This document shows, one piece after another, positions 2,577 to 22,176 of a stretch of 24,000 bases of DNA. A program made the position numbers and the translations under genes. The DNA is taken from NCBI GenBank assembly GCA_963851425.1, contig CAWKPC010000001.1, forward strand, positions 1,896,023 to 1,920,022. Reading direction: 5' to 3'. The notes under the pieces are model-generated. The model was not told where the DNA came from. It made no database searches and was given only the letters and a program-made list of their open reading frames with translations. Position 1 is the stretch's first letter. Each line of letters begins with the position of its first letter. The DNA is from an uncultured Solirubrobacteraceae bacterium. GTDB lineage: Bacteria; Actinomycetota; Thermoleophilia; Solirubrobacterales; Solirubrobacteraceae.

Positions 2577-2672
2577 ACCCCTCGGTCTACACCCGCTGCA
2601 TGGCTGATCCCTTGATACAGTTGCGCATTGTGCGCCATGCTCGCTAATGTACACGCTGCCGTATCCCCACAC

Positions 2673-2716
2673 GCTTGAGGGCGGTGCAGTCCCCACAGAT
2701 GGCATCGCCCTCAAGC
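2673..2716. promoter_or_regulatory. 11-bp perfect inverted repeat GCTTGAGGGCG-N22-CGCCCTCAAGC in the divergent XRE / secreted-protein intergenic region
   Basis: Read directly: arms at 2673-2683 and 2706-2716, 30 nt upstream of ATG 2746. Could be an operator or a 5'-UTR hairpin. Function is inferred only. Confidence 0.4.
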
Positions 2717-2745
2717 ACTCGAAGCGATAAGGAGACCTCCTGCTG

Positions 2746-3645: not shown

Positions 3646-3747
3646 GGCTGGCAGTGTTTGCATCGACTTCCTGGACCGTTTGCGCCAGATGGAAAGGACC
3701 GACAGGGGATTTGTGCCACACGAATAAAGAGTGGTATGGGCCTAGCG

Positions 3748-4059
3748 TTACTGTTGCTCGTCTTCGAGCGCTTGTTCTTGCGCTAGAAGCTGCGCTCGCC
3801 GTTCATGCCAATCATCAGGCAGTTCCATGACGATGAATAAGAAATCTGAAGGCTCGCGTAAAGGCGGGTCGCCCTCGGACAGGCCCTCATGTGGTTCGCA
3901 TCGCATGGTGTAGCCGGCTATCACTTTGCCGCCCCAGGCGTGGGCCGCCTCATATTTGGCCTGGATTACGGTCTCGACAAACCCCACAGTCATCGGCATG
4001 TTGGCTCCGTCGTGAGGATGGTCGGTGGTAGCCTGAATTGCGTGTACTTCATACTGCAT
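3748..4059 (-). CDS. hypothetical protein (103 aa)
   Basis: ORF track. ATG 4059 is preceded by GGGAGAAGGA and an AT-rich promoter-like island. Acidic C-terminus. No family recognised. Confidence 0.65.
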   Translation of the reverse strand: MQYEVHAIQATTDHPHDGANMPMTVGFVETVIQAKYEAAHAWGGKVIAGYTMRCEPHEGLSEGDPPLREPSDFLFIVMELPDDWHERRAQLLAQEQALEDEQQ

Positions 4060-4082
4060 AGAAAACGTCCTTCTCCCACCAA

Positions 4083-4122
4083 ATTATACTCATATTATAT
4101 ACTAGTAGGTAAATAGACGCAA
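4083..4122 (-). promoter_or_regulatory. sigma70-like promoter candidates for the 103-aa gene
   Basis: The minus strand reads TTGCGT (4122-4117), a 17-nt spacer, then TATAAT (4099-4094). A second perfect TATAAT sits at 4088-4083. This is an AT-rich island within GC-rich DNA. Confidence 0.4.
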
Positions 4123-4133
4123 GATTACCTACT
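4104..4133 (-). terminator. hairpin AGTAGGTAA-N12-TTACCTACT overlapping the stop codon of the upstream gene
   Basis: 9-bp perfect stem (4104-4112 / 4125-4133), followed on the minus strand by AT-rich sequence with no clean U-tract. Possible terminator of the 4129..5433 gene. Confidence 0.35.
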
Positions 4134-5433
4134 GGTAAAACGCAAACACCATCGCCCACCGATTAGCCCAGCAGCTCCCGAGTAGTCCCTTGGAGCTGAG
4201 TGCCATGCCGCCAGCGTCGAAAAAATCCTGGTTCGGGAGCGGTGCCTCTTTTGCGAACTCGCTAGGCGTTATGGAGTATTGCCAACTGTCGCCCGAATCG
4301 AACGACAGCGGCGATGGCCTCGAGGTGATTACTGCCGCAGCATCGGTAATCCATTTTGGGTAGGAGTTATTGGCAGCTATCCAACCGCGTATTACATGCA
4401 GGTGGTTATTCGGGGAGTTCCATACCGTGAGCCGGATTCGTGCGTTGGTAGCAATCGTCGGGCCAACGAGGTCGGCACAGTTGGACTCCTGTGGTGCATC
4501 GTTGGCAACGTAAAGCCACACAAATATGAGATCGCCTGATTGTGCGATCGCAGCCGGTTTTGTCCAGTGAGGCCGGTGCGCATACCACCGCGAGCCTGTC
4601 TCGACCCGCAGAAACCTGCGCTCGTCGCCTACATGCTCCGGGGAGTCGATGAAGGAGTCCAAGATCGGATAGTCCGGCACGGGCGTGCTGTTGACATATT
4701 GGTAGGTACGTCGACCGCCCACTTCATCGCCGAAGCCGAGCACAGGGCTTGTTTCCCCAGGCAGCGGAGTTTGGTGCGGGCTGAGCGGTCGTTCGGCTTC
4801 GGCTGTCAGGCGGGCCAACTCAACATGGGTCGTCGCTCCGGCTTCATCCCACGGCTGGGTGGTCAGCAGCGTTACGGTGATCGCTAGGAGCAACATGAGA
4901 CCGGCGAGCGCCGACTTACGCCTCAATGGTTGCCAGGAGGTGCGCTCCAGTCCCGTCGCCAGACCAGCGGACACCGGCTCGTCTGACGTCTGCTCGGGCT
5001 CGTCGTAGCCCCCTGGCGGCAGAGAGTTGGGAGGAAGGCGCTTGAGTAGATCGTCGGCAATCAAAATGCACATGCGACGCTCGACGTCTTCTTTGAGCGC
5101 GGATTCCGCGACTTTCAACGTGATCGCTGCCTTGGTACGTCGATCGGTGACCGTCCGCATGTCGGCCGTGTCTGGATCGAGGCCAAAGACCTGCGCCGTG
5201 GCCGTGGCGAACGATCCTGGCGCCAGGCGGCCAATCGAGACAGTGACCGCATCCGCGACTTGGCGAAGTGACGTCAGCGTGGGATCGTCCGACAACCGGG
5301 CCGCGACCGCATTCAGTGCCTCGATCGTGGCTTTGCCCCGTAGCGGATACCCCACCCGGACCGTCAGAACCTTCGCCAGGTCATCGGCAAGTTCCGCCTC
5401 CTTCGGAGGCCACGGACGGTGAGCGGACGCCAT
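4129..5433 (-). CDS. hypothetical single-pass membrane protein (cytoplasmic helical N-domain, one TM, about 240-aa extracytoplasmic C-domain)
   Basis: The ORF track gives 4129..5628, starting at a TTG. The first 65 codons are Cys/Trp/Arg-rich, so I prefer ATG 5433 (MASAHRPWPP). TTG 5628 has AAGGGG 3 nt upstream and remains possible. The TM helix ALAGLMLLLAITVTLLTT lies about 175 aa after ATG 5433. This topology resembles anti-sigma/sensor proteins, but no motif was recognised. Confidence 0.7.
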   Translation of the reverse strand: MASAHRPWPPKEAELADDLAKVLTVRVGYPLRGKATIEALNAVAARLSDDPTLTSLRQVADAVTVSIGRLAPGSFATATAQVFGLDPDTADMRTVTDRRTKAAITLKVAESALKEDVERRMCILIADDLLKRLPPNSLPPGGYDEPEQTSDEPVSAGLATGLERTSWQPLRRKSALAGLMLLLAITVTLLTTQPWDEAGATTHVELARLTAEAERPLSPHQTPLPGETSPVLGFGDEVGGRRTYQYVNSTPVPDYPILDSFIDSPEHVGDERRFLRVETGSRWYAHRPHWTKPAAIAQSGDLIFVWLYVANDAPQESNCADLVGPTIATNARIRLTVWNSPNNHLHVIRGWIAANNSYPKWITDAAAVITSRPSPLSFDSGDSWQYSITPSEFAKEAPLPNQDFFDAGGMALSSKGLLGSCWANRWAMVFAFYQ

Positions 5434-5595
5434 GTCCCGAATGATCGCAAACAGAAGCGGCCGGATGGCAGGCAGATAGGCCGCTTTCGCAAGTTTTCCG
5501 ACGTTCTCCCCCAATTCCCTGTCGTTTGCCTCTCGATACTCGCTGCCTACGGAGCCAGAGTGTCGCCACAACCAAACGACAGAAAGGCGGCAGCG

Positions 5596-5775
5596 ATGGA
5601 TTCGTACAAAAATGCAGGACCGAGGCAAGGGCCCCTTGGGATACTCGCCGAGCCCGACGTTTGGTGGGGCGAGTCAGGCATCGACGCCTTGCTTTGGGCC
5701 GATCCTGCGCCCTACGGACCTCCAGCTACAGAAGTGCCGGTCCGATCAGCACTGGCACGGGCAGGTGATGCCTAA
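5596..5775 (+). CDS. possible small ORF (59 aa, MDSYKNAGPRQGPLGILAEP...), first gene of the + strand block
   Basis: ATG 5596 has GAAAGGCGG 5 nt upstream, and its TAA stop overlaps the next ATG (TAATG at 5773-5777). Third-position bias is only moderate. It is incompatible with the long (5628) version of the divergent gene. Confidence 0.3.
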   Translation: MDSYKNAGPRQGPLGILAEPDVWWGESGIDALLWADPAPYGPPATEVPVRSALARAGDA

Positions 5776-6110
5776 TGACCCTACCTCTCAGCCCCACCCA
5801 TCCCTGCGAGGGCTGCTTCCTTCAGGAGCAACGAAGCGGCCGGGTCTGCCCGTCGGCTCGGGATGCCTACGCCTTGGCGGACCTTGAGGCCCAGCGCCAC
5901 GGCGAGGCCCTGCACGCCGCCATCCTCGCTGACGCGGGGCGTGTCCCCGGATTCGCCGAGCTGGTACGCCGCGACGCCATGAGCCGCACCGGAGCCTTGC
6001 CAGCGTCGATCAGTCTCGGCCTGCTGGCAGCTCCCTCGCCTCATCCTCTGTTCACCGACTCTGCCAAGGAGGTCATCCGTGTCGCTCTTCCATCCCGCAC
6101 CCCGCGATAG
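5775..6110 (+). CDS. hypothetical protein (111 aa)
   Basis: ORF track. Very strong G/C third-position bias when read codon by codon. Contains CEGC...C near the N-terminus. Overlaps the next gene by 32 nt. Confidence 0.55.
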   Translation: MTLPLSPTHPCEGCFLQEQRSGRVCPSARDAYALADLEAQRHGEALHAAILADAGRVPGFAELVRRDAMSRTGALPASISLGLLAAPSPHPLFTDSAKEVIRVALPSRTPR

Positions 6111-6408
6111 CCAAGCAGGCGGCCTGACCCGTCGTCAGCTCGAACAGGCTCGGCGAGTCGAAGCCGAGACGGCTCTCGAACTACATCGCTACAAGCATGG
6201 CTCTCACTTCAAGGCGCAGATCGACATCTACGACAGCGAAGCCGTGGCGGACGCCAACCAGGCCGCCGCTTGCACCGAAATGGACTTGCTGGACTGGTGC
6301 CTGAGCCGGGCGGGTTCGTCTGCCGTAAAGATTGAGATCACGGCGCGAGCAGCACAGCGCGTGGCGCTCATCAATGATCGTCGCATCATGCGGAAATTTG
6401 GAGGCTAA
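6079..6408 (+). CDS. hypothetical protein (109 aa)
   Basis: GTG 6079 lies 6 nt after AAGGAGG (6066-6072). Good codon bias. Confidence 0.65.
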   Translation: MSLFHPAPRDSQAGGLTRRQLEQARRVEAETALELHRYKHGSHFKAQIDIYDSEAVADANQAAACTEMDLLDWCLSRAGSSAVKIEITARAAQRVALINDRRIMRKFGG

Positions 6409-6410
6409 CC

Positions 6411-6605
6411 GTGCTGCTGCCTGATGCGAATGACAATCAGTTGGCGGGCGATACTGAGCAGGTGTTGGTGAAGCTGTACCGGCTCCGGTGCCAGATACGT
6501 GTCAGTGAGTTCAAGGAAGAACAACGACGTGATGCGGCCACCGTGCGAGGGGCGCTGGACGAGGTCTTTCGGGAGATAGACAGACAGGAAGGCGGTCAGC
6601 GATGA
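6411..6605 (+). CDS. hypothetical protein (64 aa)
   Basis: GTG 6411 lies 6 nt after GGAGG (6400-6404), 2 nt after the previous stop. Its stop overlaps the next start (ATGA at 6602-6605). Confidence 0.55.
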   Translation: MLLPDANDNQLAGDTEQVLVKLYRLRCQIRVSEFKEEQRRDAATVRGALDEVFREIDRQEGGQR

Positions 6606-6796
6606 CTGTACCTCCATCACGGTGGCGCGACGCGGCTCTGAATGTGGCGGGGACTGTCTTGGCGGTGGCGCTGATGCTGTATGTCGCCGCTCGCCTCATT
6701 ATGGCCGTCTTGCCGGTTCTCATTGGCATTGGCATTTTGGGTTTGGTGGGCTTTACTGGCTGGTCTATTTACCAATTTCGGAAGTCGCGGTGGTGA
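6602..6796 (+). CDS. small two-TM membrane protein (64 aa)
   Basis: ATGA overlap with the upstream ORF. Two hydrophobic helices: AALNVAGTVLAVALMLYVAARLI and VLPVLIGIGILGLVGFTGWSIY. Confidence 0.65.
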   Translation: MTVPPSRWRDAALNVAGTVLAVALMLYVAARLIMAVLPVLIGIGILGLVGFTGWSIYQFRKSRW

Positions 6797-6852
6797 ACAT
6801 ATTTCCTGCGACGAAGATAGTCGTATCGGTGTTGTGAAATATGACAAAGATA

Positions 6853-6881
6853 TTGACTATATTATGGTTTCATTTTTTAAT
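6853..6881 (+). promoter_or_regulatory. sigma70-like promoter candidate for the transfer operon
   Basis: TTGACT (6853-6858), a 17-nt spacer, then TTTAAT (6876-6881), inside a 230-bp AT-rich island (6797-7029) upstream of the 7030 gene. Confidence 0.4.
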
Positions 6882-7029
6882 AGTCATTCTCCCGATATTG
6901 CCATAAGCAGTATGCGGTTTTAGTTGAGGCACGGGTTTATCCGCTTGCAGACGGTCGTCCTGAGATAGGGACGTGGTGAGTCTGCGTGCCCAAGCTAAAC
7001 CGTTTGGCGGAGAGAAAGGAGGTACATCC

Positions 7030-7245
7030 ATGTCAAGAACGTACCACCATGGAGAACCAAAAATTAGGGTCAGAGGTGTACGCCGACCCACTGACTTGCG
7101 CCGCTTGGCGCGGACCTTGATTGAGCTGGAGTATCAACAGGCCCAGGCCGAAGCTGAGGCCGAGACCACACATAGCAAACAGCGAAAAACCAAACAGGGT
7201 AAGAGTCAGCGACGTAACGACGCGAACGGGGAGGCCGCATCGTGA
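7030..7245 (+). CDS. small basic protein (71 aa, MSRTYHHGEPKIRVRGVRRPTDLRRLARTLIELEYQQ...)
   Basis: The ORF track starts at 6973. I prefer ATG 7030, which follows GAAAGGAGG by 7 nt. Its stop overlaps the GTG of the next gene (GTGA at 7242-7245). Lys/Arg-rich, so possibly DNA-binding (inference). Confidence 0.6.
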   Translation: MSRTYHHGEPKIRVRGVRRPTDLRRLARTLIELEYQQAQAEAEAETTHSKQRKTKQGKSQRRNDANGEAAS

Positions 7246-9398
7246 CGTCGGCTGCTCCGATTTGGTACCGCCTGCGTTGGCCGCGCGAAGTCAAGCCCGA
7301 GCAAGTCGCCCAAGTGTTTCGCTTGCTGGCGACGGCTGCTGGAACGCCAGTCGTGATCGAGGCCGTTGGTTCGCCTGGCGCGGTCGAACATCGGTTGGCG
7401 TTGCCTGCCAGCCGAGCCGAAAGCGTGGTTGACCAGCTTCGAGCCGCGATACCCGGTCTGAGCGTCGAGGAAGTATCGGAGCGCCCCCCTCTGGCTGCGA
7501 GCCATGCTGTCGAGCTGCGTTTGTCGACCAAGCGCCGACCGCTGCGGAGCGATGACGTGGCCGGTATTAGCCGCGCCATATTGACGGCGCTGGCACATCT
7601 GCACCGTGGCGAGCATCTAAGTATTCAATGGGTACTTGGCCGATCGTTGGCCGCGGTGGCTGTACCGAATCAACTGGAGGGGTTGGGCCGAGAGTCATGG
7701 ATCGGTGCCCTGCTGCTGGCACCGTTTGGCACCCCGCCGCAGGCCGATATCGAGGTGCGCAATGCTGTGCGTGCCAAGCAAGCAGAGCCGGGTTGGCGGG
7801 CCGTTGGTCGCGTTAGCGTGAAGGCCAAGACGGTGAGCCGTGAACGGCAGTTGATCCGACAGGTGGTTGGCGCCATCGGGAGTGCCGAAGATCCCGGCGT
7901 CCGGTTTTGGGTTCGCAGAGCGAGCGTGAAGCGCGTGATCGCTGCGACGGCTGGCTGGCGTCTGCCGCTACGACTGAACGCCACTGAGCTTGCCACCGTT
8001 TCGTCCTGGCCGATTGGGTTGATCGGCGAGCTGCCGGTGTCGATGATCGGCAGTCGCCTAATCCCTCCATCCGGGGCGATCTCCCACAAGGGGCGAGTCG
8101 TTGGCACGGCGTCATTTCCGGGACGGGAGCGTCCCGTGACACTGTCACCTGTCGATTCGCTGCGACATCTGCACCTGCTTGGGCCAACCGGCGTCGGCAA
8201 GTCCACGCTACTGCTCAACCTCATAACCCAGGACATACAGGCTGGCCGGGCGGTAGTGGTGATCGAGCCGAAGTCCGACCTCATCGCGTCGGTGCTAGAG
8301 CGCATCCCACAGGAGCGCGTGAATGATGTGGTGCTCGTCAGCCCGGGAGATAGCCGCCCGGTTGGCTTGAATCCAATGGCTTTGCATGGTCGTTCGCCGG
8401 AGCTGGTCGCCGATCAGTTGCTCGGCCTCTTTCACTCGCTCTACGCAGCGCATTGGGGACCACGGACACACGACATTCTTGGGGCGTCGCTGCTGACATT
8501 GGCGCGAGCACCCGGCATGACGCTGGCGGCGCTGCCGCTGCTCCTAACGGATGCGAACTTCCGGCGACGGGCTCTGGCTCACATTGATGATCCGATCGGC
8601 CTAGAGCCGTTTTGGAGCGGCTATGAAGCCTGGAGTGAGCAGGAGCGCGCCACGGCCATAGCCCCAACTTTGAACAAGCTACGCCCGCTGTTGCTGCGGC
8701 CGGAAATGCGAGCCATCATCGGACAAACTTGTGGCTTTGATCTGCGTCAAGTTTTCACAGGGCGCAAGATCCTGCTGGTTGATCTCAGCAAGGGACTACT
8801 CGGGCCGGAGACATCGGCACTGCTCGGGAGCCTGGTTATCTCGCAGTTGTGGCAGACAATTCTCGGTCGAACTGGCATTGCGCCTGAGCAGCGCCATCCC
8901 GTGACAATTGTCGTAGACGAGTTTCAAGACTACCTACGCTTGCCTATGGATTTCGCAGATGCCCTAGCTCAGGCTCGTGGCTTGGGTGCTTCGTTCCATC
9001 TCGCGCATCAGTACCTCCACCAGCTCGATCCGGCGATGCGCTCGGCAGTGCTGGCCAACGCGCAGTCACGCATCGCTTGGCGGTTGTCGGCTGAGGATGC
9101 CCGGGTGCTAGCGGCCGGCACTTCGCTTTCGCCCGAGGACTTCCAAAGTCTCGGTGCCTTCCAGTGCTACGCCCAGCTCGTCGCGCAAGGTGCAATTCAG
9201 CCGTGGTGCAGTGTCGCCACCCTACCGCCAAGCCAGCCAATCAGCGACCCGGCGTTGGTCCGTGCCGCCTCACGGGGCAGCTACGGAGCCGATCGCGCTG
9301 TGGTTGAGGCCGAGCTGCACCAGCTCTTGTTCAATCGCCGGGCAACTGACGGTAATGACCTCGCGCCACGGCGTCGAGCTAACAGGAGCGCCAAATGA
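7242..9398 (+). CDS. TraD/TraG/VirD4-like type IV coupling protein-family P-loop ATPase, apparently soluble (718 aa)
   Basis: Walker A GPTGVGKST (aa 314-322, nt 8181-8207). Walker B IVVDEFQD (aa 556-563, nt 8907-8930). AHQYLHQL...SRIAWRL region typical of conjugative coupling ATPases. GGGGAGG SD 7 nt upstream of the GTG. No hydrophobic N-terminal helices. Confidence 0.85.
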   Translation: MTSAAPIWYRLRWPREVKPEQVAQVFRLLATAAGTPVVIEAVGSPGAVEHRLALPASRAESVVDQLRAAIPGLSVEEVSERPPLAASHAVELRLSTKRRPLRSDDVAGISRAILTALAHLHRGEHLSIQWVLGRSLAAVAVPNQLEGLGRESWIGALLLAPFGTPPQADIEVRNAVRAKQAEPGWRAVGRVSVKAKTVSRERQLIRQVVGAIGSAEDPGVRFWVRRASVKRVIAATAGWRLPLRLNATELATVSSWPIGLIGELPVSMIGSRLIPPSGAISHKGRVVGTASFPGRERPVTLSPVDSLRHLHLLGPTGVGKSTLLLNLITQDIQAGRAVVVIEPKSDLIASVLERIPQERVNDVVLVSPGDSRPVGLNPMALHGRSPELVADQLLGLFHSLYAAHWGPRTHDILGASLLTLARAPGMTLAALPLLLTDANFRRRALAHIDDPIGLEPFWSGYEAWSEQERATAIAPTLNKLRPLLLRPEMRAIIGQTCGFDLRQVFTGRKILLVDLSKGLLGPETSALLGSLVISQLWQTILGRTGIAPEQRHPVTIVVDEFQDYLRLPMDFADALAQARGLGASFHLAHQYLHQLDPAMRSAVLANAQSRIAWRLSAEDARVLAAGTSLSPEDFQSLGAFQCYAQLVAQGAIQPWCSVATLPPSQPISDPALVRAASRGSYGADRAVVEAELHQLLFNRRATDGNDLAPRRRANRSAK

Positions 9399-9727
9399 GA
9401 GCGCGACGTATCGCCCGTCGCATCGCGTCGATGGGTGCGCTTGAAAACCCCCGTACTGACGTAGGAGGCAGCCGAACTTTGGTAACGAAAGTCTTTCATC
9501 AGTTGTTTCAGTCTTTCTTGGTGTGCGTTGGCGCGGGCCAGTGGCGGACGGCTGAGCGAGGGATGGCCGATGCGCAAGGTCAGCGTCAGCGGAGTTCAGC
9601 GGGGGTGTGGCCCTCTCCACGGCCCTGGCATACCCGTCGGCTCGCGTCGTCAGCAGCGCCCGTCTCAACACCTTTCGCTACGTCTACATTGGTAACGAAA
9701 GAGGGTAAGAATGAGGTTGTGTCGTGA
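9395..9727 (+). CDS. possible bridging ORF (110 aa) between the coupling ATPase and the replication-relaxation gene
   Basis: ATG 9395 overlaps the upstream stop (ATGA), and its TGA overlaps the downstream GTG (GTGA at 9724-9727). An internal AGGAGG (9463-9468) precedes an in-frame TTG at 9479. The composition is odd (W/R/S-rich) and third-position bias is only about 60 percent G/C, so it may be non-coding. Confidence 0.35.
   Translation: MRARRIARRIASMGALENPRTDVGGSRTLVTKVFHQLFQSFLVCVGAGQWRTAERGMADAQGQRQRSSAGVWPSPRPWHTRRLASSAAPVSTPFATSTLVTKEGKNEVVS
9479..9701. repeat. 13-bp perfect direct repeat TTGGTAACGAAAG at 9479-9491 and 9689-9701
   Basis: Read directly. The copies are 210 bp apart and bracket most of the 325-bp gap upstream of the replication-relaxation gene. 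TCAGCG x3 (about 9579-9603) and GTCTTTC x2 lie in between. Confidence 0.6.
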
Positions 9728-10542
9728 GCTGTGCTCCTACGCGCTCGTACATCTCGGCGAGGGGGGTCGCGCGACTGCGAGAACGGCTGTCGGTGCGAGA
9801 CATGGCGATCATCGCCCAGGTAGCCGAGCTGCGACTGATGAGCGGCCGCCAGATTCAGGCGATCCACTTCCCCGGCAGCGAGCACGACAACGAGCAGGCC
9901 GCCATCCGCGCCCGCCAGCGAGTGCTAGAACGCCTCTGCCGCGAGCGACTACTGATCCATCTGGAGCGTCGCATCGGCGGCGTCCGGGCTGGCTCGGCTG
10001 GTCTGGTGCTGGCACTCGGGCCAGTCGGTCAACGGGTGCTTGCGCTCTATCGGCCTCGTCGTCGATCATACGAGCCGACGCTGCGGTTTGTCGATCACAC
10101 GCTCGCCCTGTCCCAACTCGTCGTAGACGTGACGGTGGCCGCTCGACAAGGGTCGCTCGACGTGCTGGACGCTCAGGCTGAGCCGCGAAGCTGGCGGGAG
10201 TTCTCCGGGCCAGGTGGACGACGCTTGCTCCGACCCGATGCGTTCTTGGCGCTTGGGATTGGCGCGTTCGAGCTGCGCTGGTTCATCGAGGTAGACCGCG
10301 CAAGCGAGAGCCTGCCAGTCGTCGTGCGCAAGTGTCGGCTGTATGCCGACTACTACCAATCCGGCAAGGAGCAGGCCAACAATGGCGGGGTCTTTCCCCG
10401 TGTCTGCTGGATCGTGCCAGACGAGGCGCGAGCTGCGCGGTTGCAGAACGCCATCGCTCGGGACCGTGCGTTGCCCGAACGACTGTTTGTGGTAGTCACG
10501 ACGGCTTCCGCCCTTGATATTCTCCGCGAGGTATCCACGTGA
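9724..10542 (+). CDS. replication-relaxation (Replic_Relax, PF13814-like) family protein (272 aa)
   Basis: N-terminal winged-helix-like LSVRDMAIIAQVAELRLMSGRQIQAIHF...RARQRVLERLCRERLLIHLERRIGGVRAGS, then FVDHTLALSQLVVDV...RPDAFLAL...WFIEVDRASES. This pattern and its position next to a TraD-like ATPase match the family as I remember it. Not verified by search. Confidence 0.7.
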   Translation: MSCAPTRSYISARGVARLRERLSVRDMAIIAQVAELRLMSGRQIQAIHFPGSEHDNEQAAIRARQRVLERLCRERLLIHLERRIGGVRAGSAGLVLALGPVGQRVLALYRPRRRSYEPTLRFVDHTLALSQLVVDVTVAARQGSLDVLDAQAEPRSWREFSGPGGRRLLRPDAFLALGIGAFELRWFIEVDRASESLPVVVRKCRLYADYYQSGKEQANNGGVFPRVCWIVPDEARAARLQNAIARDRALPERLFVVVTTASALDILREVST

Positions 10543-10545
10543 TTT

Positions 10546-10582
10546 CACACTTAACCTTTAATACTAGTGTGGTACACTTAAC
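10546..10582 (+). promoter_or_regulatory. AT-rich control region with direct repeat ACACTTAAC x2 upstream of the recombinase gene
   Basis: ACACTTAAC at 10547-10555 and 10574-10582, 27 bp apart, flanking AATACTAGTGT. Possible TTAACC (10551-10556), 16-nt spacer, TACACT (10573-10578) promoter, which would put the TSS at or near ATG 10589. Confidence 0.35.
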
Positions 10583-10588
10583 AACATT

Positions 10589-12442
10589 ATGGAGTTGGTG
10601 TTGCGTGAACGTAGTAAGGGTGACTGGTCGATGAGTCGAGCTGTTGAGCGTGGTCTTGAGGGCGATCCGGCGGTGATCTACTTGCGGGTGTCCAGCAAGG
10701 AGCAAGCCGAGAAGGGCGGCGAGGCTGAGGGCTACTCCATCCCTGCCCAGCGCGAAGGCTGCAAGCGCAAGGCCATCAGCCTCGATGCGGTTGTGGTCGA
10801 GGAGTTCGTGGAGCGCGGCGAGTCAGCCAAGACCGCTGATCGGCCGGAGCTACAACGGATGCTGGCCTACGTTGCCGAGAACCGCGTCAAATACGTCATC
10901 GTCCACAAGGTCGATCGGCTGGCGCGCAACCGCGCTGATGACGTGGCGATCAATATGGCGATCCGGCAGGCCGGAGCCGAGCTGGTCAGCGTCAGCGAGA
11001 ACATCGACCAAACGCCATCCGGGCTGCTGCTGCACGGCATCATGTCCTCGATCGCGGAGTTCTACAGCCGCAACCTCGCCAATGAGGTCATCAAGGGCAC
11101 CGTCCAGAAGGCCAAGAACGGTGGCACGCCAGGCCGGGCTCCGACTGGCTACCTGAACGTGCGGTGCATGGTCGAGGGCCGCGAAGCCCGCACCATCGAG
11201 ATCGACCCGGTGCGTGGGCCGCTAATGCGGTGGGCATTTGAGACGTATGCGACGGGAGAGTGGACGATCCGTCGTCTGCTGGCCGAGTTGACGGCGCGTG
11301 GCCTGACGACAGCGCCTGGACGGCAGAAGACTGGCCGAGCGCTGGGTGTTTCGCATCTGCATACGCTGCTACGCAATCCCTACTACATGGGGATGGTGCG
11401 CTACCGGGGCGCAATCTATGCGGGTAGACATGAGCCGTTGGTGACGCCGGAGGTTTGGAACGAGGTTCAGAAGGTCTTGAGCGCGAAGTACCTGACGGGC
11501 GAGAAGGACCGCGAGCACCCGCACTACCTCAAGGGGAGCATCTACTGCGGCCAGTGCGGCGCTCGCATGATCGTCAACCACGCCAAGGGCAACGGTGGCG
11601 TCTATCCGTACTTCATCTGCGGTGGACGCCAGCGCGATCCGCTGAGCTGCAAACAGCGGGCGGTACGGATTGAGCAGGTCGAGGCCGCGATCATCGCCCA
11701 CTACGGCACCGTGCAGATCCCTGCGGAGGAGGTCGAACGACTCCGCAAGTTCTTGAGTGATGAGCTGGCAAAGCTCCGTAGCGAATCCGATCACGAACGG
11801 GGAGTGCAGGAGCGCCGGTTGAGCAAGTTCCAAGGCGAACGCGAGAAGCTGCTGCAAGCCCACTACGCCGACGCGATCCCGCTGGAACTGCTCAAGAGCG
11901 AGCAAGATCGCCTCACGACGGCGATTGCCGGGGCGGAAGGCCGGTTGGCTGCCATCGCCGCCGACTTCAAGACGGCCGAGACGAACCTCGAAAGAGCCCT
12001 GGCCCGCGCAAAGGACTGCCAAGCGGCCTACCGCGAGGCAACAGACCGGATGCGGCGACAGTTCAATCTGGCGTTCTTCAAGCGGCTCATCATCAGCGAC
12101 GAGGGCATCGTTTCCGGGGAACTGGCCGAGCCGTGGGACGTGATCTTGGGAGAGGAGCTGCGTAGAGCAGTTGCCGTTCGAGAAGCCGAAAGCTTGAGGG
12201 ACGCGATCGAGCAAGCCGAGCGCAACACAACGTGGCACCCACGCGAGCCTGAGTTGGCTCTTGTGGGTGCCACGGCCGCCGCCCCTGATAAGGGCGACGG
12301 TTGGAGTCCGAACATTTTGGTGCGGACCCGGGTACAACGTCGGAACCCCGATCGCTTCCTTGAGGATCTCATGGAGCCGGTCGCTCGGCAAGCCCGAAAG
12401 CGGGCCGTGAAGGCGATTCGTAGCGCAGGCAGAGCGGTTTGA
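10589..12442 (+). CDS. large serine recombinase / integrase (617 aa)
   Basis: Resolvase-type catalytic domain (VIYLRVSSKEQ with nucleophile Ser, DRPELQRML, VIVHKVDRLARN). Recombinase domain (GYLNVR...WTIRRLLAELTARG). Zinc ribbon CGQCGARM...FICGGRQ...SC. Long C-terminal coiled coil. An alternative start is ATG 10631 (MSRAVERG), which has AAGGG upstream. Confidence 0.9.
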   Translation: MELVLRERSKGDWSMSRAVERGLEGDPAVIYLRVSSKEQAEKGGEAEGYSIPAQREGCKRKAISLDAVVVEEFVERGESAKTADRPELQRMLAYVAENRVKYVIVHKVDRLARNRADDVAINMAIRQAGAELVSVSENIDQTPSGLLLHGIMSSIAEFYSRNLANEVIKGTVQKAKNGGTPGRAPTGYLNVRCMVEGREARTIEIDPVRGPLMRWAFETYATGEWTIRRLLAELTARGLTTAPGRQKTGRALGVSHLHTLLRNPYYMGMVRYRGAIYAGRHEPLVTPEVWNEVQKVLSAKYLTGEKDREHPHYLKGSIYCGQCGARMIVNHAKGNGGVYPYFICGGRQRDPLSCKQRAVRIEQVEAAIIAHYGTVQIPAEEVERLRKFLSDELAKLRSESDHERGVQERRLSKFQGEREKLLQAHYADAIPLELLKSEQDRLTTAIAGAEGRLAAIAADFKTAETNLERALARAKDCQAAYREATDRMRRQFNLAFFKRLIISDEGIVSGELAEPWDVILGEELRRAVAVREAESLRDAIEQAERNTTWHPREPELALVGATAAAPDKGDGWSPNILVRTRVQRRNPDRFLEDLMEPVARQARKRAVKAIRSAGRAV

Positions 12443-12557: not shown

Positions 12558-12797
12558 TCAGCCGAGGGGGACCGGCACGAGCTCGTCGCCGGTTCCGGGC
12601 GAATGGTCATTCATTAGCCGCTGGAGCGTTGCAAACCCTGTCCCGATCGCCACCGCTGACGACGAGAACACGACCTCGTGGATGCCAGAGTTCACGCCTA
12701 GCTCCATGCTGCGGATCGCATCATCGGCATAGATGACATCCACGAAGGCTTTCCACGCCTCGTCGGACGTCGTGGTCACGCGGACAATCGCACCCAT
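12558..12797 (-). CDS. small hypothetical protein (79 aa, MGAIVRVTTTSDEAWKAFVDVIYADDAIRSMELGVNSG...)
   Basis: About 80 percent G/C at third positions from ATG 12797 to the stop. The track's longer version (to 12986) is Arg/Trp-rich and would overlap the divergent ATPase start. Weak SD. Could be an independent gene or the remnant of an insertion target. Confidence 0.5.
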   Translation of the reverse strand: MGAIVRVTTTSDEAWKAFVDVIYADDAIRSMELGVNSGIHEVVFSSSAVAIGTGFATLQRLMNDHSPGTGDELVPVPLG

Positions 12798-12902
12798 GAC
12801 CCGAAGTGTACTCGGAAGGTACCCCCAGCGGCGCCAACAAGTCGCCGTTCGCAGGATTCTGCGAATCTGGACGACCGTAACATTCGGGCGGATACTTGAG
12901 AT

Positions 12903-15485
12903 ATGCCTGAAAGCAAGATGGACGATCAAGCTAATCCCCCAACGCCAACCGCGCGCCAACTCCTGACTGAGTGGGCGAACCAGCAAGACGGTTGGCTTCG
13001 TCAGCTTGTCTTCGAGGTACTCGCGTCAGGCCAGCCCGCTTCAGACAAAGCTCTCGGCGGGATCTACGACCTCTTCCTCCTCGAAAAGGGCTTGGCGGAG
13101 GGCACCCACGAGCCGGTTGCGTCGTTGGCGTACAACGAGTCATCCGATGAAGCATCAGGCGGGTTTGTGTTCCGCAAGCTTGAGAAGGTGCGTGGCGTAA
13201 ACGCGCTGACCGAGGGACAAGCCATCGAGTTCAACCCTGGCTTGACAATCCTGTTCGGCGAGAACGGCACCGGAAAGACTGGCTATGCCCGTGTCCTCAA
13301 GACACTCGCGGGTGTTCGCACGGCCGAGGAGATCCTTCCCAACGTCCATGAGCCAAGCGTCGCCGTACCACGGGAGGCCACCGTTGCGTATGCAATCGGA
13401 GACCACGAGCGCGTACTCGAATGGAAAGGCGAGTTGGGCGTACCGCCAATCACTCAAGCCAGCGTCTTCGACTCGCCAGCCGTGCGGCTTCACGTTGATG
13501 ATGATCTGGCGTACGTCTATACGCCTCGGGATCTCGCCCTGTTCCACGTCGTATCTGAAGGCATTGACGCGATCCAGGCTCGAGCGGAGAAGGATGCCGC
13601 AGACCATCTACCGGGCGGGAATCCCTATTTGCAGTTCTTTGAGCGAGGCACGGTCGTCTATCCGCACGTCGAGACCTTGGGTCCAGCTACGGACGTTCCG
13701 GCACTTGAGACACTAGCGGCCGTTACCGAAGATGAAGAAAAGACCGTCGTCTCTCTCAAAACAACGGTTGCCGCGCTCGAATCCGACTCGATCCCGGCCC
13801 AGCTCACCGCTGCACGCAGCCGAGCGCAGCTGTACAGAGAGCTGGCGAAAGGCGCCGACACTGCTTCAACGTTCGACAGCGACGCATACAAGCAGTCGGT
13901 GAAGGCCGCAAACGATGGAGCCGACGCATATGCGAGCTTGCGGTCAGAGTTGCTCGCGAGCGCGGGCATCGCGGACCAGTCGGAAGATGCCTGGCAGACA
14001 TTCATCTTGGATGGGGACGCCTATCGAGCGCACATCGGTGCAGATGACTATCCACATGACGACGATTCGTGCCTCTACTGCCGCCAGCCACTCGCGCCAG
14101 AGGCCCTTGCGCTCTTGAAGCGATATCGCGAATTCGCGGCTGACGCCGCTCGCGGTCGCATTGATGCTGCGCGGGCGCAGACGACCAGTCTGTCGCGCCA
14201 CCTCACGGGTCTAAGTCTCTCGTCCCTGCACTCGGCGGTGAAGCAACTCCAGGAGGATAACCTCGAGGATCAGTATCTTGCCGGAGTAGAGGCGTTTCTC
14301 GTCAGGCTGGATGCCCAAGAGCCGCATTGGCAAGCTGGAGCCGCAGTCGACTGGACTGGCATCGGCGATACAGCACGCGTGGTTGAGAAGGAAGCCGCCA
14401 CCCGCCGCGATGCTGCCGAGTCCCTCGTTACCGACCTCACAACACGCTCGGCTGACAGAGCCGAGCTGCTCAAGACTGAATCCGCGAAGCTCGCTGAGCT
14501 CAATGGTCGGCTTGAGCTGAAGAAGCGCCTTGCTGAGATCAAGGCCACCGTAGACGATGCAAAGTGGGCTCAGCGGGCCAAGCAGCTCATCAAAGCATTC
14601 CCGACCCTCAAGCGTTCTTTGACCGAAGTCTCCAAGACCGCCAGCGAGCAACTCCTCAATGCCGATTTCGGACGCCGGTTTGCGGATGAGTGCAAAGCAC
14701 TGAGAGCTCCAGTCGTCCGACTGGAGTTTCCGGGGAGACGCGGCCAACCCGCCAGACGGAAGGTGGTCTCAGCCGACCACAAGCCATCACAAATTCTATC
14801 CGAGGGTGAGCAGAAGGTCATCGCGTTGGCAGATTTTTTGGCGGAGGCCGCGTTGCGCCTCATCCCCGCACCGATTATCTTCGACGATCCGGTCAACAGC
14901 CTGGATTACCGGCGGATACATGAGGTCGCCGGCCGCATTGCACAACTTGCTGATGCCCGTCAGGTAGTCGTATTCACCCATAGCATCTGGCTCGCGACCG
15001 AGCTCCTCGACCGCTTTGAAAAGGATAAGTCACGGTGCAAGTACTACTCGGTGACCGATGATGGCGGTAAGGGCATTGTGGTCGCTGGCACACACCCCCG
15101 ATGGGACAGTGTCGCGAACACGACTAAGAAGGTCAATGAGGTGATTGCATCGGCAAAAACAGCCGAGGGAGAGACACGTCAAGCACTAATCGAGAGTGCG
15201 TATTCGAAGATCCGCTCGTGGTGCGAGATCGTAGTCGAGATGGAGCTGCTCCAAGGTGTGACTCAACGATACCAAGCGAACGTCATGATGACGAGGCTTG
15301 CCGACATTAAGGCCGACCGCCTCGCTGCCGCTACTGACATAATCAATCCCGTCTTCCTGAGAGCCTGTCGCGTCATGGATGGTCATTCACAGCCCCTTGA
15401 GACTCTTTCAGTGCGCCCCACGCTGGCCGAGCTTGAGCAAGACTGGGCAGACATCGGGGCAGCGCGCGCCGCATATATTGCTTAA
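12903..15485 (+). CDS. PrrC/RloC-like (AAA_13-type) ABC ATPase with coiled-coil insert and CxxC zinc hook (860 aa)
   Basis: Walker A GENGTGKT (aa 119-126). ABC signature LSEGEQ (aa 632-637). Walker B IIFDDP (aa 658-663). His-switch region VVFTHS. An A/E/L/R-rich helical insert of about 500 aa lies between them, with C390-L-Y-C393 (nt 14070-14081) at its midpoint. The C-terminal domain has R771-x3-E775...H828. Confidence 0.85.
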   Translation: MPESKMDDQANPPTPTARQLLTEWANQQDGWLRQLVFEVLASGQPASDKALGGIYDLFLLEKGLAEGTHEPVASLAYNESSDEASGGFVFRKLEKVRGVNALTEGQAIEFNPGLTILFGENGTGKTGYARVLKTLAGVRTAEEILPNVHEPSVAVPREATVAYAIGDHERVLEWKGELGVPPITQASVFDSPAVRLHVDDDLAYVYTPRDLALFHVVSEGIDAIQARAEKDAADHLPGGNPYLQFFERGTVVYPHVETLGPATDVPALETLAAVTEDEEKTVVSLKTTVAALESDSIPAQLTAARSRAQLYRELAKGADTASTFDSDAYKQSVKAANDGADAYASLRSELLASAGIADQSEDAWQTFILDGDAYRAHIGADDYPHDDDSCLYCRQPLAPEALALLKRYREFAADAARGRIDAARAQTTSLSRHLTGLSLSSLHSAVKQLQEDNLEDQYLAGVEAFLVRLDAQEPHWQAGAAVDWTGIGDTARVVEKEAATRRDAAESLVTDLTTRSADRAELLKTESAKLAELNGRLELKKRLAEIKATVDDAKWAQRAKQLIKAFPTLKRSLTEVSKTASEQLLNADFGRRFADECKALRAPVVRLEFPGRRGQPARRKVVSADHKPSQILSEGEQKVIALADFLAEAALRLIPAPIIFDDPVNSLDYRRIHEVAGRIAQLADARQVVVFTHSIWLATELLDRFEKDKSRCKYYSVTDDGGKGIVVAGTHPRWDSVANTTKKVNEVIASAKTAEGETRQALIESAYSKIRSWCEIVVEMELLQGVTQRYQANVMMTRLADIKADRLAAATDIINPVFLRACRVMDGHSQPLETLSVRPTLAELEQDWADIGAARAAYIA

Positions 15486-15504
15486 GCAGCCATGCGTGCT
15501 GCGC

Positions 15505-15531: not shown

Positions 15532-16617
15532 TTAGCGCACCGAGCACTTCTGCTTAGCCAACGTGATCAGCCTTTCGTGGAGGATGATAACGCCAATCAA
15601 AGAGCTGATATACGCGAATATGTCATCAAGCTCATTAGATAGATCGTCTCGCTCCACTACGCATGTGTTCGCCTTGATTCGTTCCCACCGTGCATGTCCG
15701 GACGGATGCGAACTCATCATCGCTAGATAAGTGTCTGTCTCGCTCGATGAGCCGAAAACTAGCGCCAAGATCTCGCATAGCCCAAAGAAATGCATCAAGC
15801 TGCCACACGCGACCGCCGCTCTCTCTTGTGGATAGCGAGACAACAGGCAAGCGACCGCGTATGCGTCAGCTTCGAACTCAGCGTTGTGGGCCTGAGAGGG
15901 TTCGGTCGCACGATCCTGCGCTAGAGTGGGCTTTATCGAGTCAAGATGACCGAGCCGAAAATGCCCATACTCATGTAGAAGAATAAACTCCTCAATCGTG
16001 ATGGCTAGATCCGTAAAATTGTCATCCGGCACAGCAAGTGCAGTGAGAATGTCACGGTGACTAGGCTTCATTGACGCTATTATGTCGCCTGTAGTCGCTA
16101 CTCGTGCAAGCCCGATCAGGACGTCGACATAAGACGGCGCCGACTTGGGATCTATGGCCTGACAGGTCGCGATAGCAAAAATGCAACGCAGTATAAGACC
16201 GAGCACGTTGACCACGGCTTCGTTGAGGACGATGATTGCCCCACCATGCGGCGTCGCAGAGATCCTGCCGTTAAGCGTCTCCAGCGGAAGCATTCCGACC
16301 GGTATCGATTCAAGCGTTTCTCTATCGGCCCCGGTCATTGAGAGGGCGGATTCTCGCAGCCTGCCGATCAGTGTGCCTCGGAAACTTCTCTCATATGACA
16401 TCATCTCGTCGTTGTACTCCACGTACTTGACCCACTGGCGTGGCTCTGCGGCTCCCGTCGCTACCCACGCATCAAAATGTTCGCGGAGCTGATCCAGCGG
16501 AATATACCTCGGTGGAAGATCCTCCGCGTAATGCGTTGAGAGGACCGATTCGAAGAGCAGCTTGAGATGGCGGTCGTCGTTAGATTCAGGAGGCAAAACG
16601 GCCGCTCGTTCCTTCAC
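15532..16617 (-). CDS. M48-like HExxH zinc metallopeptidase domain protein with unknown about 200-aa N-domain (361 aa)
   Basis: HEYGH (aa 215-219, nt 15961-15975), EFEADAYA (aa 247-254) and SSHPSGHARWERI (aa 302-314). This is the HExxH / E-x-x-A-D / (S/T)HP...R(I/L) motif set of peptidase M48 (HtpX/Ste24/BepA-type). An ImmA/IrrE-like (M78) relationship is not excluded. GTG start, no clear SD. Confidence 0.75.
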   Translation of the reverse strand: MKERAAVLPPESNDDRHLKLLFESVLSTHYAEDLPPRYIPLDQLREHFDAWVATGAAEPRQWVKYVEYNDEMMSYERSFRGTLIGRLRESALSMTGADRETLESIPVGMLPLETLNGRISATPHGGAIIVLNEAVVNVLGLILRCIFAIATCQAIDPKSAPSYVDVLIGLARVATTGDIIASMKPSHRDILTALAVPDDNFTDLAITIEEFILLHEYGHFRLGHLDSIKPTLAQDRATEPSQAHNAEFEADAYAVACLLSRYPQERAAVACGSLMHFFGLCEILALVFGSSSETDTYLAMMSSHPSGHARWERIKANTCVVERDDLSNELDDIFAYISSLIGVIILHERLITLAKQKCSVR

Positions 16618-16687
16618 AATGCGCTTGAGTAGTGTTCCTCGAAATCACTTGCGGTGCATCTCTGTGCAGGCACTCTGCGATGCGCAG

Positions 16688-17098
16688 CTAGACCCGCAAT
16701 GCCGTAATAACGGCATTAAGGTCTAGCCCATCGGCACACACATCGTATGTTGTATGGTTCCCGTCGGCCGTGAAAGCAATAACGGTGCCCCCTGGCAAAT
16801 CGGGTACCTCAACGATAGAGAGGGAGTCGCCTCGTGCGTCGATGACGAGCCCCCGCTTGCGTCCGCGACAGACCACGTTCTGGATCTGTGAGGCAAGATA
16901 CCCTGCACTAGCTGTACCTGAGATGATCAACGTGGCTGTCTCCGCGAACACGGCCTTGCCGGTGTCGAGAAGGGCTGCGGAACTCCGCGGATCTTCGTCG
17001 ATCTCAAGGACGATCTTACGAGCATCTGCCAAGGACGCGCCTTGTCGCAGCCGCCACGAAAAAGCTATCGCATCGCTCACGGACGCGATTCTACACAT
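16688..17098 (-). CDS. hypothetical protein (136 aa), first gene of the peptidase operon
   Basis: ORF track. Same strand, 70 nt upstream of the peptidase gene. Good codon bias. No HTH or other motif recognised. Start codon has no clear SD. Confidence 0.6.
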   Translation of the reverse strand: MCRIASVSDAIAFSWRLRQGASLADARKIVLEIDEDPRSSAALLDTGKAVFAETATLIISGTASAGYLASQIQNVVCRGRKRGLVIDARGDSLSIVEVPDLPGGTVIAFTADGNHTTYDVCADGLDLNAVITALRV

Positions 17099-17287: not shown

Positions 17288-18376
17288 TCAAGGAACAGTA
17301 AGCGTGTTTGAGCTGATACCGTTAATAGTCACCCACACCTGATCGCCTGCTTCGTAGTCGTAGCATGTGTGGCCATTGTCCCATGTCTCTGGGCTGACGG
17401 TCTCGTACAGCGTAAAGGTCGCGTCGCCCCCGCTGGCGAAGTCGCAAGAGTAGCTATACGAACCAGGCGCGAACCCTTCCATGTTGAGCCATATCCAGCC
17501 AGGGTGTGCGCCACTCCATCCGATATGTAGTGCCTGCGACGGAGGCGTCGGTGTGGGTGTGGGTGTGGGTGTGGGTGTAAGTGTAGGTGTAGGTGTGGAT
17601 GTGCCGCCGCCTTGGGGATTGACGGTCGGCCCTTGTATGCCAGAACTATTGACAGACGTGCTTGACACCGGCAGCGACGAACCACCGCTCGGTGCTCCCG
17701 TTGAGGACGCGTGCGACGAGCACGCCGACCCGTCGATGACACCTTTGAGCAAAGATAGCGACACTGCTTTACCACCAGAAGCCGTGATGCCGTCAGCGAA
17801 CAGCGAGGCGGCGCATGAGGGGTTGATCTTCGAGATGACCCAGCTAATGGCCTTAGAACTGACCCAGACGACGCCCTTCTCCGCGAGACACTCGACAAAG
17901 CCTGGTACGTCGCCGTCAAGAATGCTGAGACACAGCGCGTCCTGGACTTTCGTTAGCAGACCGGAGATCGAGAAAAGCGATAGCTGGCTTACCCAGACGG
18001 TTCGCTGACCGGGCTGGTTGCTCTCGGGAACCCAGAGCCCGCCGAGGTCGTGAGCGACAACTTCGGTGCCGTTGCGCAGCGGCGCCGTGACCTCAACGGA
18101 GCCATGCCACGGCACGTTGATCTTGATGGCGATGCGGCCACCGGAGAGCCGGGTGATCGAGGCGGAGCCATTTCGCTTGACTACGTGCGGAGGCACGTAG
18201 AGATTCCAGCCATCCCCGGCGTTGACGTCGCCTCCGCCACGAACGGTCAGATGCTGCCTGGCAAGTAGGCGAGCCGCCTTGGAGTGGGCAGCCGCGGGCT
18301 GCGCAACCACTCCTAGAACAAGCGCAACGGCAGCAGCCATCGGAATGGTCCAGCGCAATCCAACCCATACCCGCAT
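17288..18376 (-). CDS. secreted protein with Thr-Pro repeat linker and about 85-aa C-terminal domain (362 aa)
   Basis: GAGGGAG SD 6 nt upstream of ATG 18376. Signal peptide MRVWVGLRWTIPMAAAVALVLGVVAQPAAAHS. Linker TSTPTPTLTPTPTPTPTPTPP. C-terminal module SQALHIGWSG...VWVTINGISSNTLTVP. No family recognised. Confidence 0.75.
   Translation of the reverse strand: MRVWVGLRWTIPMAAAVALVLGVVAQPAAAHSKAARLLARQHLTVRGGGDVNAGDGWNLYVPPHVVKRNGSASITRLSGGRIAIKINVPWHGSVEVTAPLRNGTEVVAHDLGGLWVPESNQPGQRTVWVSQLSLFSISGLLTKVQDALCLSILDGDVPGFVECLAEKGVVWVSSKAISWVISKINPSCAASLFADGITASGGKAVSLSLLKGVIDGSACSSHASSTGAPSGGSSLPVSSTSVNSSGIQGPTVNPQGGGTSTPTPTLTPTPTPTPTPTPPSQALHIGWSGAHPGWIWLNMEGFAPGSYSYSCDFASGGDATFTLYETVSPETWDNGHTCYDYEAGDQVWVTINGISSNTLTVP
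17549..17602 (-). repeat. imperfect hexanucleotide tandem repeat (GGTGTG/GGTGTA)n encoding the TP linker
   Basis: Read directly: ggtgtgggtgtgggtgtgggtgtgggtgtaagtgtaggtgtaggtgtgg. Lies inside the CDS above. Confidence 0.8.
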
Positions 18377-21719: not shown

Positions 21720-22001
21720 TCAGCGCGGCGAGGAGGCACCGGCAGGCGGGTTGGCCGCGCTGCTACCGGCCTCCATCTGCTCGGCGCGGACCAGTAGCTC
21801 GGAGGCGCTGAGGTCGAGTCCGGCGGCCAGCCGTCTGAGGCTGGCGTAGCTGGGGTTGCGCTTGCCGGTCTCGACGTTACTGATCCAGCGCTGGTGCAGG
21901 TCGGTCTCGTTGGCGAGCTGCTCTTGGGTGAGTTCGAGTTCCTGGCGGCGGGCTTTGACGGCCAGGCCCAGGGCGTGTTGGAAGGCCGGGGATGCGGACA
22001 T
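21720..22001 (-). CDS. XRE-family helix-turn-helix transcriptional regulator (93 aa)
   Basis: HTH LGLAVKARRQELELTQEQLANETDLHQRWISNVETGKRNPSYASLRRLAAGLD. GGGAGG SD 8 nt upstream of ATG 22001. Confidence 0.85.
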   Translation of the reverse strand: MSASPAFQHALGLAVKARRQELELTQEQLANETDLHQRWISNVETGKRNPSYASLRRLAAGLDLSASELLVRAEQMEAGSSAANPPAGASSPR

Positions 22002-22028
22002 GGGGCCAGCCTCCCGGTGTCCGCTCTA

Positions 22029-22111
22029 CCGCACAATGACATTGGGGTAGACCTATCCTTGACATTCCGGTAGGGTCGCCCCATGACATTCTAGTAGAGA
22101 GGATTGTGCGG
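22029..22111. promoter_or_regulatory. operator array: 9-bp inverted repeat CCGCACAAT/ATTGTGCGG bracketing three direct repeats TGACATT-N3-GTAG
   Basis: Inverted-repeat arms at 22029-22037 and 22103-22111. Direct repeats at 22037-22050, 22060-22073 and 22084-22097, spaced 23 and 24 bp. Repeat 2 contains a perfect TTGACA. The array fills the divergent region between the XRE gene (ATG 22001) and the secreted-protein gene (ATG 22177). Confidence 0.65.
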
Positions 22112-22176
22112 GCATGGCGGCGCCTCCCCACGCGTCGCCATGCCCGCATGGCTCCTCCAGACCAGAGGGAGGGTGC

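Follow-up and report, generated by a model that had tools for sequence, protein, structure and literature searches.

The window analysed here is a 24,000-nucleotide (nt) stretch of DNA from an uncultured Solirubrobacteraceae bacterium, and our subject within it is an RloC-like gene on the forward strand (12903-15485), an open reading frame (ORF) of 860 amino acids (aa) plus stop with an ATG start (Table 1). The predicted product combines a split ABC ATPase head with a long helical insert centred on a CxxC motif and a C-terminal helical domain carrying an Arg-Glu-His triad, and we read it as a probable single-gene, RloC-type defence protein. A script check placed the Walker A motif GENGTGKT at aa 119-126, the ABC signature LSEGEQ at aa 632-637, the Walker B motif IIFDDP at aa 658-663 and the hook motif CLYC at aa 390-393. 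R771, E775 and H828 were all present. The halfway point between Walker A and the ABC signature falls at aa 379, which makes C390-x-x-C393 central in the ~500-aa helical insert; the whole 860-aa protein holds six Cys in total. The insert is richer in Ala, Glu, Leu and Arg than the rest of the protein (43% versus 36%), an enrichment that is genuine but mild.

Profile searches matched the protein end to end with the PADLOC candidate PDC-S06. Model PDLC04888 aligned with aa 21-858 over model positions 15-849 of 851 (E = 5.8e-128), and three sister PDC-S06 models (PDLC04893, PDLC04891 and PDLC04892; 843-862 positions) also matched. The same four models were hit by distant relatives. Pfam AAA_13, the family that includes PrrC, was matched with a score of 54.4 bits (cutoff 36), the match being limited to aa 626-721. 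Distant members of the family filled more of the 713 positions of this model (252-711 in P0225, 20-688 in L037 and 19-630 in P0253). AAA_13 therefore encompasses the architecture that begins with Walker A and ends with the C-terminal domain, hook included, and leaves out the first ~85-100 residues alone. Further matches were to LmuB models (weak and partial, E = 1.7e-13), to generic ABC/RecF/RecN families only in NCBIfam, and to generic ABC/SbcC-like families plus one family of unknown function in PHROGs.

The full-length AlphaFold2 (AF2) model had a mean predicted local distance difference test score (pLDDT) of 85.3. It comprised, in order, a three-helix N-terminal domain, a β-rich half of the ABC head, helices over aa 209-377, a loop at aa 378-398, helices over aa 399-599, the second half of the head and a helical C-terminal domain, with the CxxC motif sitting in the non-helical loop between the two helical arms. 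Foldseek comparison of this model with the PDB returned Rad50, Lamassu LmuB (9hqu), Wadjet JetC, and the heads of cohesin and SMC together with coiled coil. Alignments to Rad50, SMC, LmuB and JetC spanned ~700-850 columns (E = 4e-8 to 1e-5), including 835 columns for Rad50 7zr1 (E = 2e-7). The model thus supports an overall Rad50/SMC-like design, from which we infer that the arms would pair in antiparallel fashion and place the hook at the apex.

A word-indexed search retrieved 343 homologues (E <= 1e-5). Most belong to Actinomycetota, among them Solirubrobacterales, Mycobacterium, Propionibacteriaceae and Microbacterium. An exhaustive profile search yielded 7,790 clusters at E <= 1e-3, of which 2,803 reached E <= 1e-30; the majority of the best 150 were full-length at ~850-880 aa and the remainder were shorter fragments. 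Residue conservation was scored in two sets, one of 42 homologues (41-83% identity) and one of 31 sequences (the query and 30 relatives, with identity down to 22%). Residues invariant in the 42-sequence set were C390, Y392, C393, Q395, R771, W773, E775, E779, R789, H828, Q830 and P831. Still invariant in the more divergent set were the ABC motifs (Walker A, signature, Walker B and H-loop) together with C390, Y392, C393, R771, E775, R789 and H828. This invariance across divergent relatives indicates that the motifs, originally picked by eye, correspond to the residues under strongest selection and did not arise by chance. An earlier sequence-only reading of this DNA had proposed the RloC design from the split ABC head, the central CxxC and the R-x3-E...H residues. 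All of its motif coordinates, including the midpoint, agreed with the script, and its identification was upheld by the conservation of the triad, by the AAA_13 score and by the Rad50/SMC-like fold of the full-length model.

When modelled alone, the C-terminal domain formed a helical bundle (pLDDT 87.6). In the full-length model its helices span aa 737-753, 756-782, 796-801, 804-824 and 841-859, and H828 lies in a low-confidence loop. The weak Foldseek matches of this domain, amid generic four-helix bundles, include the HEPN proteins 4nqf, 1ylm and 2hsb, HepT (7bxo and 6m6w) and Las1 (7y16). The triad pattern is R771-X3-E775-X52-H828. Its Glu-His spacing had been considered longer than that of PrrC in the sequence-only reading; the 52 intervening residues fall within, and at the upper limit of, the X36-52 range published for RloC (PMC2610378). 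We assign the domain as a putative nuclease because the triad is invariant, because it fits the published motif and because of the architecture in which it is embedded. A tRNA-nuclease function would follow by analogy with RloC.

The N-terminal region contains AF2 helices at aa 17-25, 30-42 and 48-61 (pLDDT ~90), in which W24 and W31 are near-invariant, and the relatives are equally long. The ~100-aa extension noted in the sequence-only reading is thus genuine. It had also been described as a departure from known examples, a view that did not hold, since the extension is common to a large subfamily represented by the four PDC-S06 models and thousands of clusters. The domain is kept throughout the ~860-aa clade, including relatives from Bacteroidota, Nitrosomonas, Campylobacteraceae and Clostridia. 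It has no match in Pfam or the PDB and is the sole truly uncharacterised part of the protein. EAD1 was considered as its identity and rejected (E = 0.06, seen in 1/31 members, no PDB match). The probable role of the three helices is an added contact for regulation or sensing.

The gene was also found in a second, independent setting. Comparison of the window with an independent metagenome contig (L062) by blastn showed 88.4% DNA identity over 12855-15487 alone (L062 2666-5298), and the two proteins fall in the same 90% cluster. The shared DNA begins 48 bp ahead of the start codon and ends 2 bp past the stop codon, and the flanks of L062 are unrelated to the window, carrying PIN/VapC-like pairs and HicA but no recombinase. 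As homology stops at the gene borders, the gene behaves as a single-gene cassette. Nine homologous loci were compared (L001-L008 and L062), and across them no neighbour of the RloC-like gene was conserved. These loci contain MmeI-type restriction-modification (R-M), an OLD-family nuclease, HicAB and PIN toxins, a content typical of defence islands. The gene therefore moves on its own among variable islands in which mobile elements and defence genes abound.

Table 1 Features of the RloC-like gene and its surroundings, in window positions.
Feature	Position (nt)	Strand	Basis or remark
Helix-turn-helix (HTH) regulator	2202-2831	-	In the element-like block
ORFs of 299 and 499 aa in the element-like block			Unknown
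TraG/VirD4-like coupling ATPase	7242-9398	+	
Replic_Relax protein	9724-10542	+	
Large serine recombinase	10589-12442	+	PHROG integrase, E = 2.4e-90
Small divergent ORF	12558-12986		
Conserved leader, 48 bp	12855-12902	+	Left edge of DNA common with the independent copy L062
Whole ORF, RloC-like / PADLOC PDC-S06 protein	12903-15485	+	ORF call, PDLC04888, AAA_13
N-terminal three-helix domain, aa 17-61	12951-13085	+	AF2 helices; motif LLxxWANxQDxWxRxLV
ABC head, N-terminal half, aa 88-205	13164-13517	+	AF2 strands 88-97, 114-118, 158-174, 187-190
Walker A GENGTGKT, K125	13257-13280	+	Script; G119, N121, G124, K125 invariant
Ascending helical arm, aa 209-377	13527-14033	+	AF2/DSSP helices 209-235, 276-292, 296-322, 326-353, 361-377
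Zinc-hook motif DDDSCLYCRQPL, aa 386-397	14058-14093	+	C390/C393 at 14070-14081; non-helical loop between arms
Descending helical arm, aa 399-599	14097-14699	+	AF2/DSSP; 77-residue helix 487-563, 34-residue helix 566-599
ABC head, C-terminal half, aa 600-730	14700-15092	+	S633, E634, D661, D662, D668, H693 invariant
ABC signature LSEGEQ	14796-14813	+	
Walker B/D-loop IIFDDPVNSLD	from 14874	+	IIFDDP at 14874-14891
H-loop H693	14979-14981	+	
C-terminal all-helical domain, aa 731-860	15093-15482	+	Presumed anticodon-nuclease/HEPN-like effector
C-terminal key residues R771, E775, R789, R823-x4-H828	R771 15213-15215; E775 15225-15227; H828 15384-15386	+	
HExxH protein (HEYGH), 361 aa	15532-16617	-	Convergent with the RloC-like gene

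Upstream of the gene, the block at 2202-12442 resembles an integrative conjugative or mobilisable element. Its serine recombinase ends 460 bp before the RloC-like gene, in agreement with the sequence-only reading, which had located the gene beside the recombinase end of a mobile element. The same reading had placed it next to a metallopeptidase operon. The HExxH ORF lies on the minus strand, convergent with the gene and in no operon with it, and its peptidase assignment is weak, with similarity to M48, M78/IrrE, CapP and PADLOC peptidase_U41 (Pfam E = 0.004-0.017; PADLOC E = 4.6e-5). Judged by the L062 copy and the nine-locus comparison, the gene adjoins both the recombinase and the HExxH gene only incidentally. 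The small divergent ORF gave no match in the scans, and scans of the gene region for promoters and terminators, tRNAs and Rfam families returned nothing exceeding background. EPSP synthase is also encoded among the window ORFs scanned.

Some further features of the window were recorded. An ORF of 136 aa without a match precedes the HExxH gene on the minus strand (15532-17098 for the two), and together they could form a small regulatory or toxin-like pair. Beyond them lies a 362-aa ORF (17288-18376, -) with a signal-peptide-like N-terminus, a (Thr-Pro)n linker TPTPTLTPTPTPTPTPTP and no Pfam or PADLOC match, whose product is probably secreted or located at the cell surface. A second DNA homology links window positions 21754-22154 to L001 16010-16414 (409 bp, 79% identity), L001 being the locus of a 74%-identical homologue. 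Located ~5-6 kb downstream of the RloC-like gene in both loci, this stretch includes a small HTH (Cro/CI-like) gene as well as a divergent promoter region, and it may be left over from a mobile element or prophage common to the two loci. Three other candidate relationships between flanking genes were rejected: the HExxH and 362-aa genes were unrelated to genes of comparable size next to the 74%-identical homologue, the small divergent ORF to the upstream ORF of L007, and the 499-aa ORF of the element to a 499-aa Rep-like neighbour in M. spongiae.

Among the more distant loci, that of a Flavobacteriales metagenome-assembled genome (MAG; L054 60-5027) encodes an 868-aa relative with 23% identity and the same N-terminal Trp motif, directly after hsdM-hsdS. 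The hsdM product has an NPPF motif and that of hsdS matches PDB 1yf2 (E = 2.3e-10); this is the 'restriction-linked orf' context behind the RloC name. In a Nitrosomonas MAG (L037 718-12943), the genes flanking an 859-aa relative encode two HerA/TrwB-like ATPases and a large serine recombinase, a mobile-element setting like that of the window. In [Pseudopropionibacterium] massiliense (L003 10628-13843), the homologue is followed, after a gap of 57 bp, by a co-oriented ORF of 1071 aa that lacks Pfam matches and may be a lineage-specific partner.

On balance, we put the probability that the gene encodes a self-contained RloC-type ATPase-RNase defence protein at roughly 0.66, with a lower figure for its exact substrate. 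By analogy with the Geobacillus and Acinetobacter RloC proteins, the zinc hook and coiled coil would hold the C-terminal RNase silent. DNA ends or breaks resulting from phage infection or genotoxic stress would then stimulate the ATPase, the stimulated ATPase would turn the RNase on, and cleavage of tRNA anticodon loops would stop translation, leading to abortive infection or growth arrest. In RloC itself, the ATPase requires DNA for nuclease activation and zinc-hook mutants bypass this switch (PMC3458546), and a DNA-break inducer switches on RloC in Acinetobacter baylyi (PMC3874168).

Several results weigh against this assignment. Foldseek comparison of the C-terminal domain gave nothing significant in the PDB (best E = 0.33) or in the BFVD viral library, and the domain found no match either as a profile against PDB sequences or member by member against Pfam. 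Its HEPN-like R823-x4-H828 is kept in closer relatives and lost in distant ones. The PADLOC PrrC model aligned with aa 659-714 (E = 1.3e-4), the ABC part alone. A homology search with residues 121-519 of Geobacillus kaustophilus RloC (GkaRloC, YP_146738), a garbled reconstruction by optical character recognition from the 2008 supplement, returned no matches. The support for sequence kinship to a bona fide RloC is indirect, coming from the AAA_13 matches of the query and of distant family members, from the hook motif and from the listed actinobacterial orthologues of the same length. The helical residues per arm are unequal (~129 versus 181). Finally, we found no published experimental test of PDC-S06 in the literature, the family being a computational candidate.

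The same architecture could serve an abortive-infection effector that attacks another substrate (mRNA, rRNA or DNA) and is not an anticodon nuclease. We regard this as unlikely. The lack of significant similarity between the C-terminal domain and any characterised nuclease is consistent with it, as are the invariant R789 and E779, which lie outside the published triad, and the wide variation in substrate among HEPN-type RNases (PMC3710099). However, R-x3-E-x(36-52)-H following a zinc-hook ABC head is exactly the arrangement of RloC, in which mutating any triad residue abolishes tRNA cleavage (PMC2610378). A second possibility, to which we give a rather smaller chance, is that the protein is a nuclease-free, Rad50/SbcC/SMC-like ATPase for DNA handling, engaged in repair or in maintenance or exclusion of the adjacent conjugative element, with the C-terminal domain as a protein- or DNA-binding module. 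The top structural matches (cohesin, SMC, Rad50 and JetC) point in this direction, together with the position of the gene just after the recombinase, in a block that also encodes a TraG/VirD4-like ATPase and Replic_Relax. Against this, four polar or charged C-terminal residues stay invariant even among highly divergent relatives, as is typical of an active site; the window ORFs scanned include no SbcD/Mre11, kleisin or LmuA/LmuC-like partner, no neighbour is conserved, and the 88%-identical copy has no adjacent recombinase.

Physical proximity, and the weak likeness of the HExxH protein to CapP/IrrE-type regulators that control some defence systems, could also be taken to indicate a multi-gene system comprising the RloC-like gene and the convergent HExxH gene and/or the small divergent ORF. 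We consider this very improbable, as the HExxH gene is not co-transcribed with the RloC-like gene, its counterpart is absent beside the 74%-identical homologue and at every other locus examined, the homology with L062 is confined to the gene and its short leader, and the small ORF has no match. A different question is whether the ~860-aa clade with a Trp-rich N-terminal domain, ranging from Actinomycetota to Bacteroidota, forms a functionally distinct subclass of RloC. In such a subclass the N-terminal domain might provide a new trigger input, for example contact with a phage protein or nucleic acid, and the divergent C-terminal domain (R771, E775, R789 and H828) might cut a different RNA than RloC does. 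We offer these proposals jointly and tentatively, and doubt them more than we favour them.

As an RloC-type protein, the product would add to a widespread group of candidate single-gene defence proteins, PDC-S06, with ~2,800 clusters at E <= 1e-30. What this locus offers is a well-delimited, self-contained cassette, consisting of the gene and a 48-bp leader, with clear mutational targets in K125, C390/C393, R771/E775/H828 and the N-terminal domain. Such a cassette lends itself to asking whether proteins of the ~860-aa subclass act as anticodon nucleases, and what the N-terminal domain senses.

RloC was described as a PrrC-like ABC ATPase carrying a Rad50-like coiled-coil/zinc-hook insert, with the C-terminal triad 'Arg-X3-Glu-X36-52His' (PMC2610378); in GkaRloC the triad is R692, E696 and H737 and the hook cysteines are C288 and C291. 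The query shows the same ABC head split by a helical insert, the central CxxC and the C-terminal Arg-X3-Glu...His, with X52 as its spacing. Without the ~100-residue extension its hook would stand near residue 290, matching the position in GkaRloC. The hook sequence of the query, C-L-Y-C-R-Q-P-L followed by L...Y-x-x-F, also resembles rows of the orthologue alignment in Fig. S1 of PMC2610378, for instance C-R-F-C-Q-Q-P-L...L..HF, and the family motif is C-x-[FY]-C-x-Q-P-L. The query differs in that GkaRloC (804 aa) lacks the ~85-100 N-terminal residues that form its three-helix domain, and in that a Ser follows its catalytic His, where in RloC the Ser comes before the His. Table S1 of PMC2610378 already included actinobacterial orthologues of 855-887 aa, from Brevibacterium linens and the Mycobacterium sp. 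strains MCS and KMS, and in it many RloC orthologues adjoin integrases, resolvases, transposases or conjugation genes. The query likewise belongs to a stand-alone type, mostly without R-M linkage, with mobile-element genes nearby and occasionally within type I R-M, as in the relative L054. The absence of R-M genes at its flanks, taken as a new genetic context in the sequence-only reading, is therefore the usual situation, as rloC is seldom R-M linked and integrase, resolvase and conjugation neighbours are common (PMC2610378, PMC3458546).

In E. coli PrrC, as in the query, the ABC ATPase precedes a C-terminal nuclease domain (putative in the query) with Arg-x3-Glu...His, and both proteins fall in Pfam AAA_13. 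However, PrrC is ~400 aa long, lacks the coiled-coil/zinc-hook insert and lies within the hsd (EcoprrI) locus that silences it, whereas the query has a ~400-500-aa helical insert and no hsd genes among the window ORFs scanned. Rad50/SbcC, LmuB and JetC have the head-plus-coiled-coil fold in common with the query, and Rad50 also has a CxxC hook, but these proteins act with separate partners (Mre11/SbcD, LmuA/LmuC and JetA/B/D, respectively) and have no fused C-terminal R-E-H domain. From PDC-S06, a single-gene candidate, the query shows no difference at the level of the sequence family. The protein probably belongs to RloC in the sense of Davidov & Kaufmann (PMC2610378), which here corresponds to the PADLOC candidate PDC-S06, and represents an established category of system instead of a new one.

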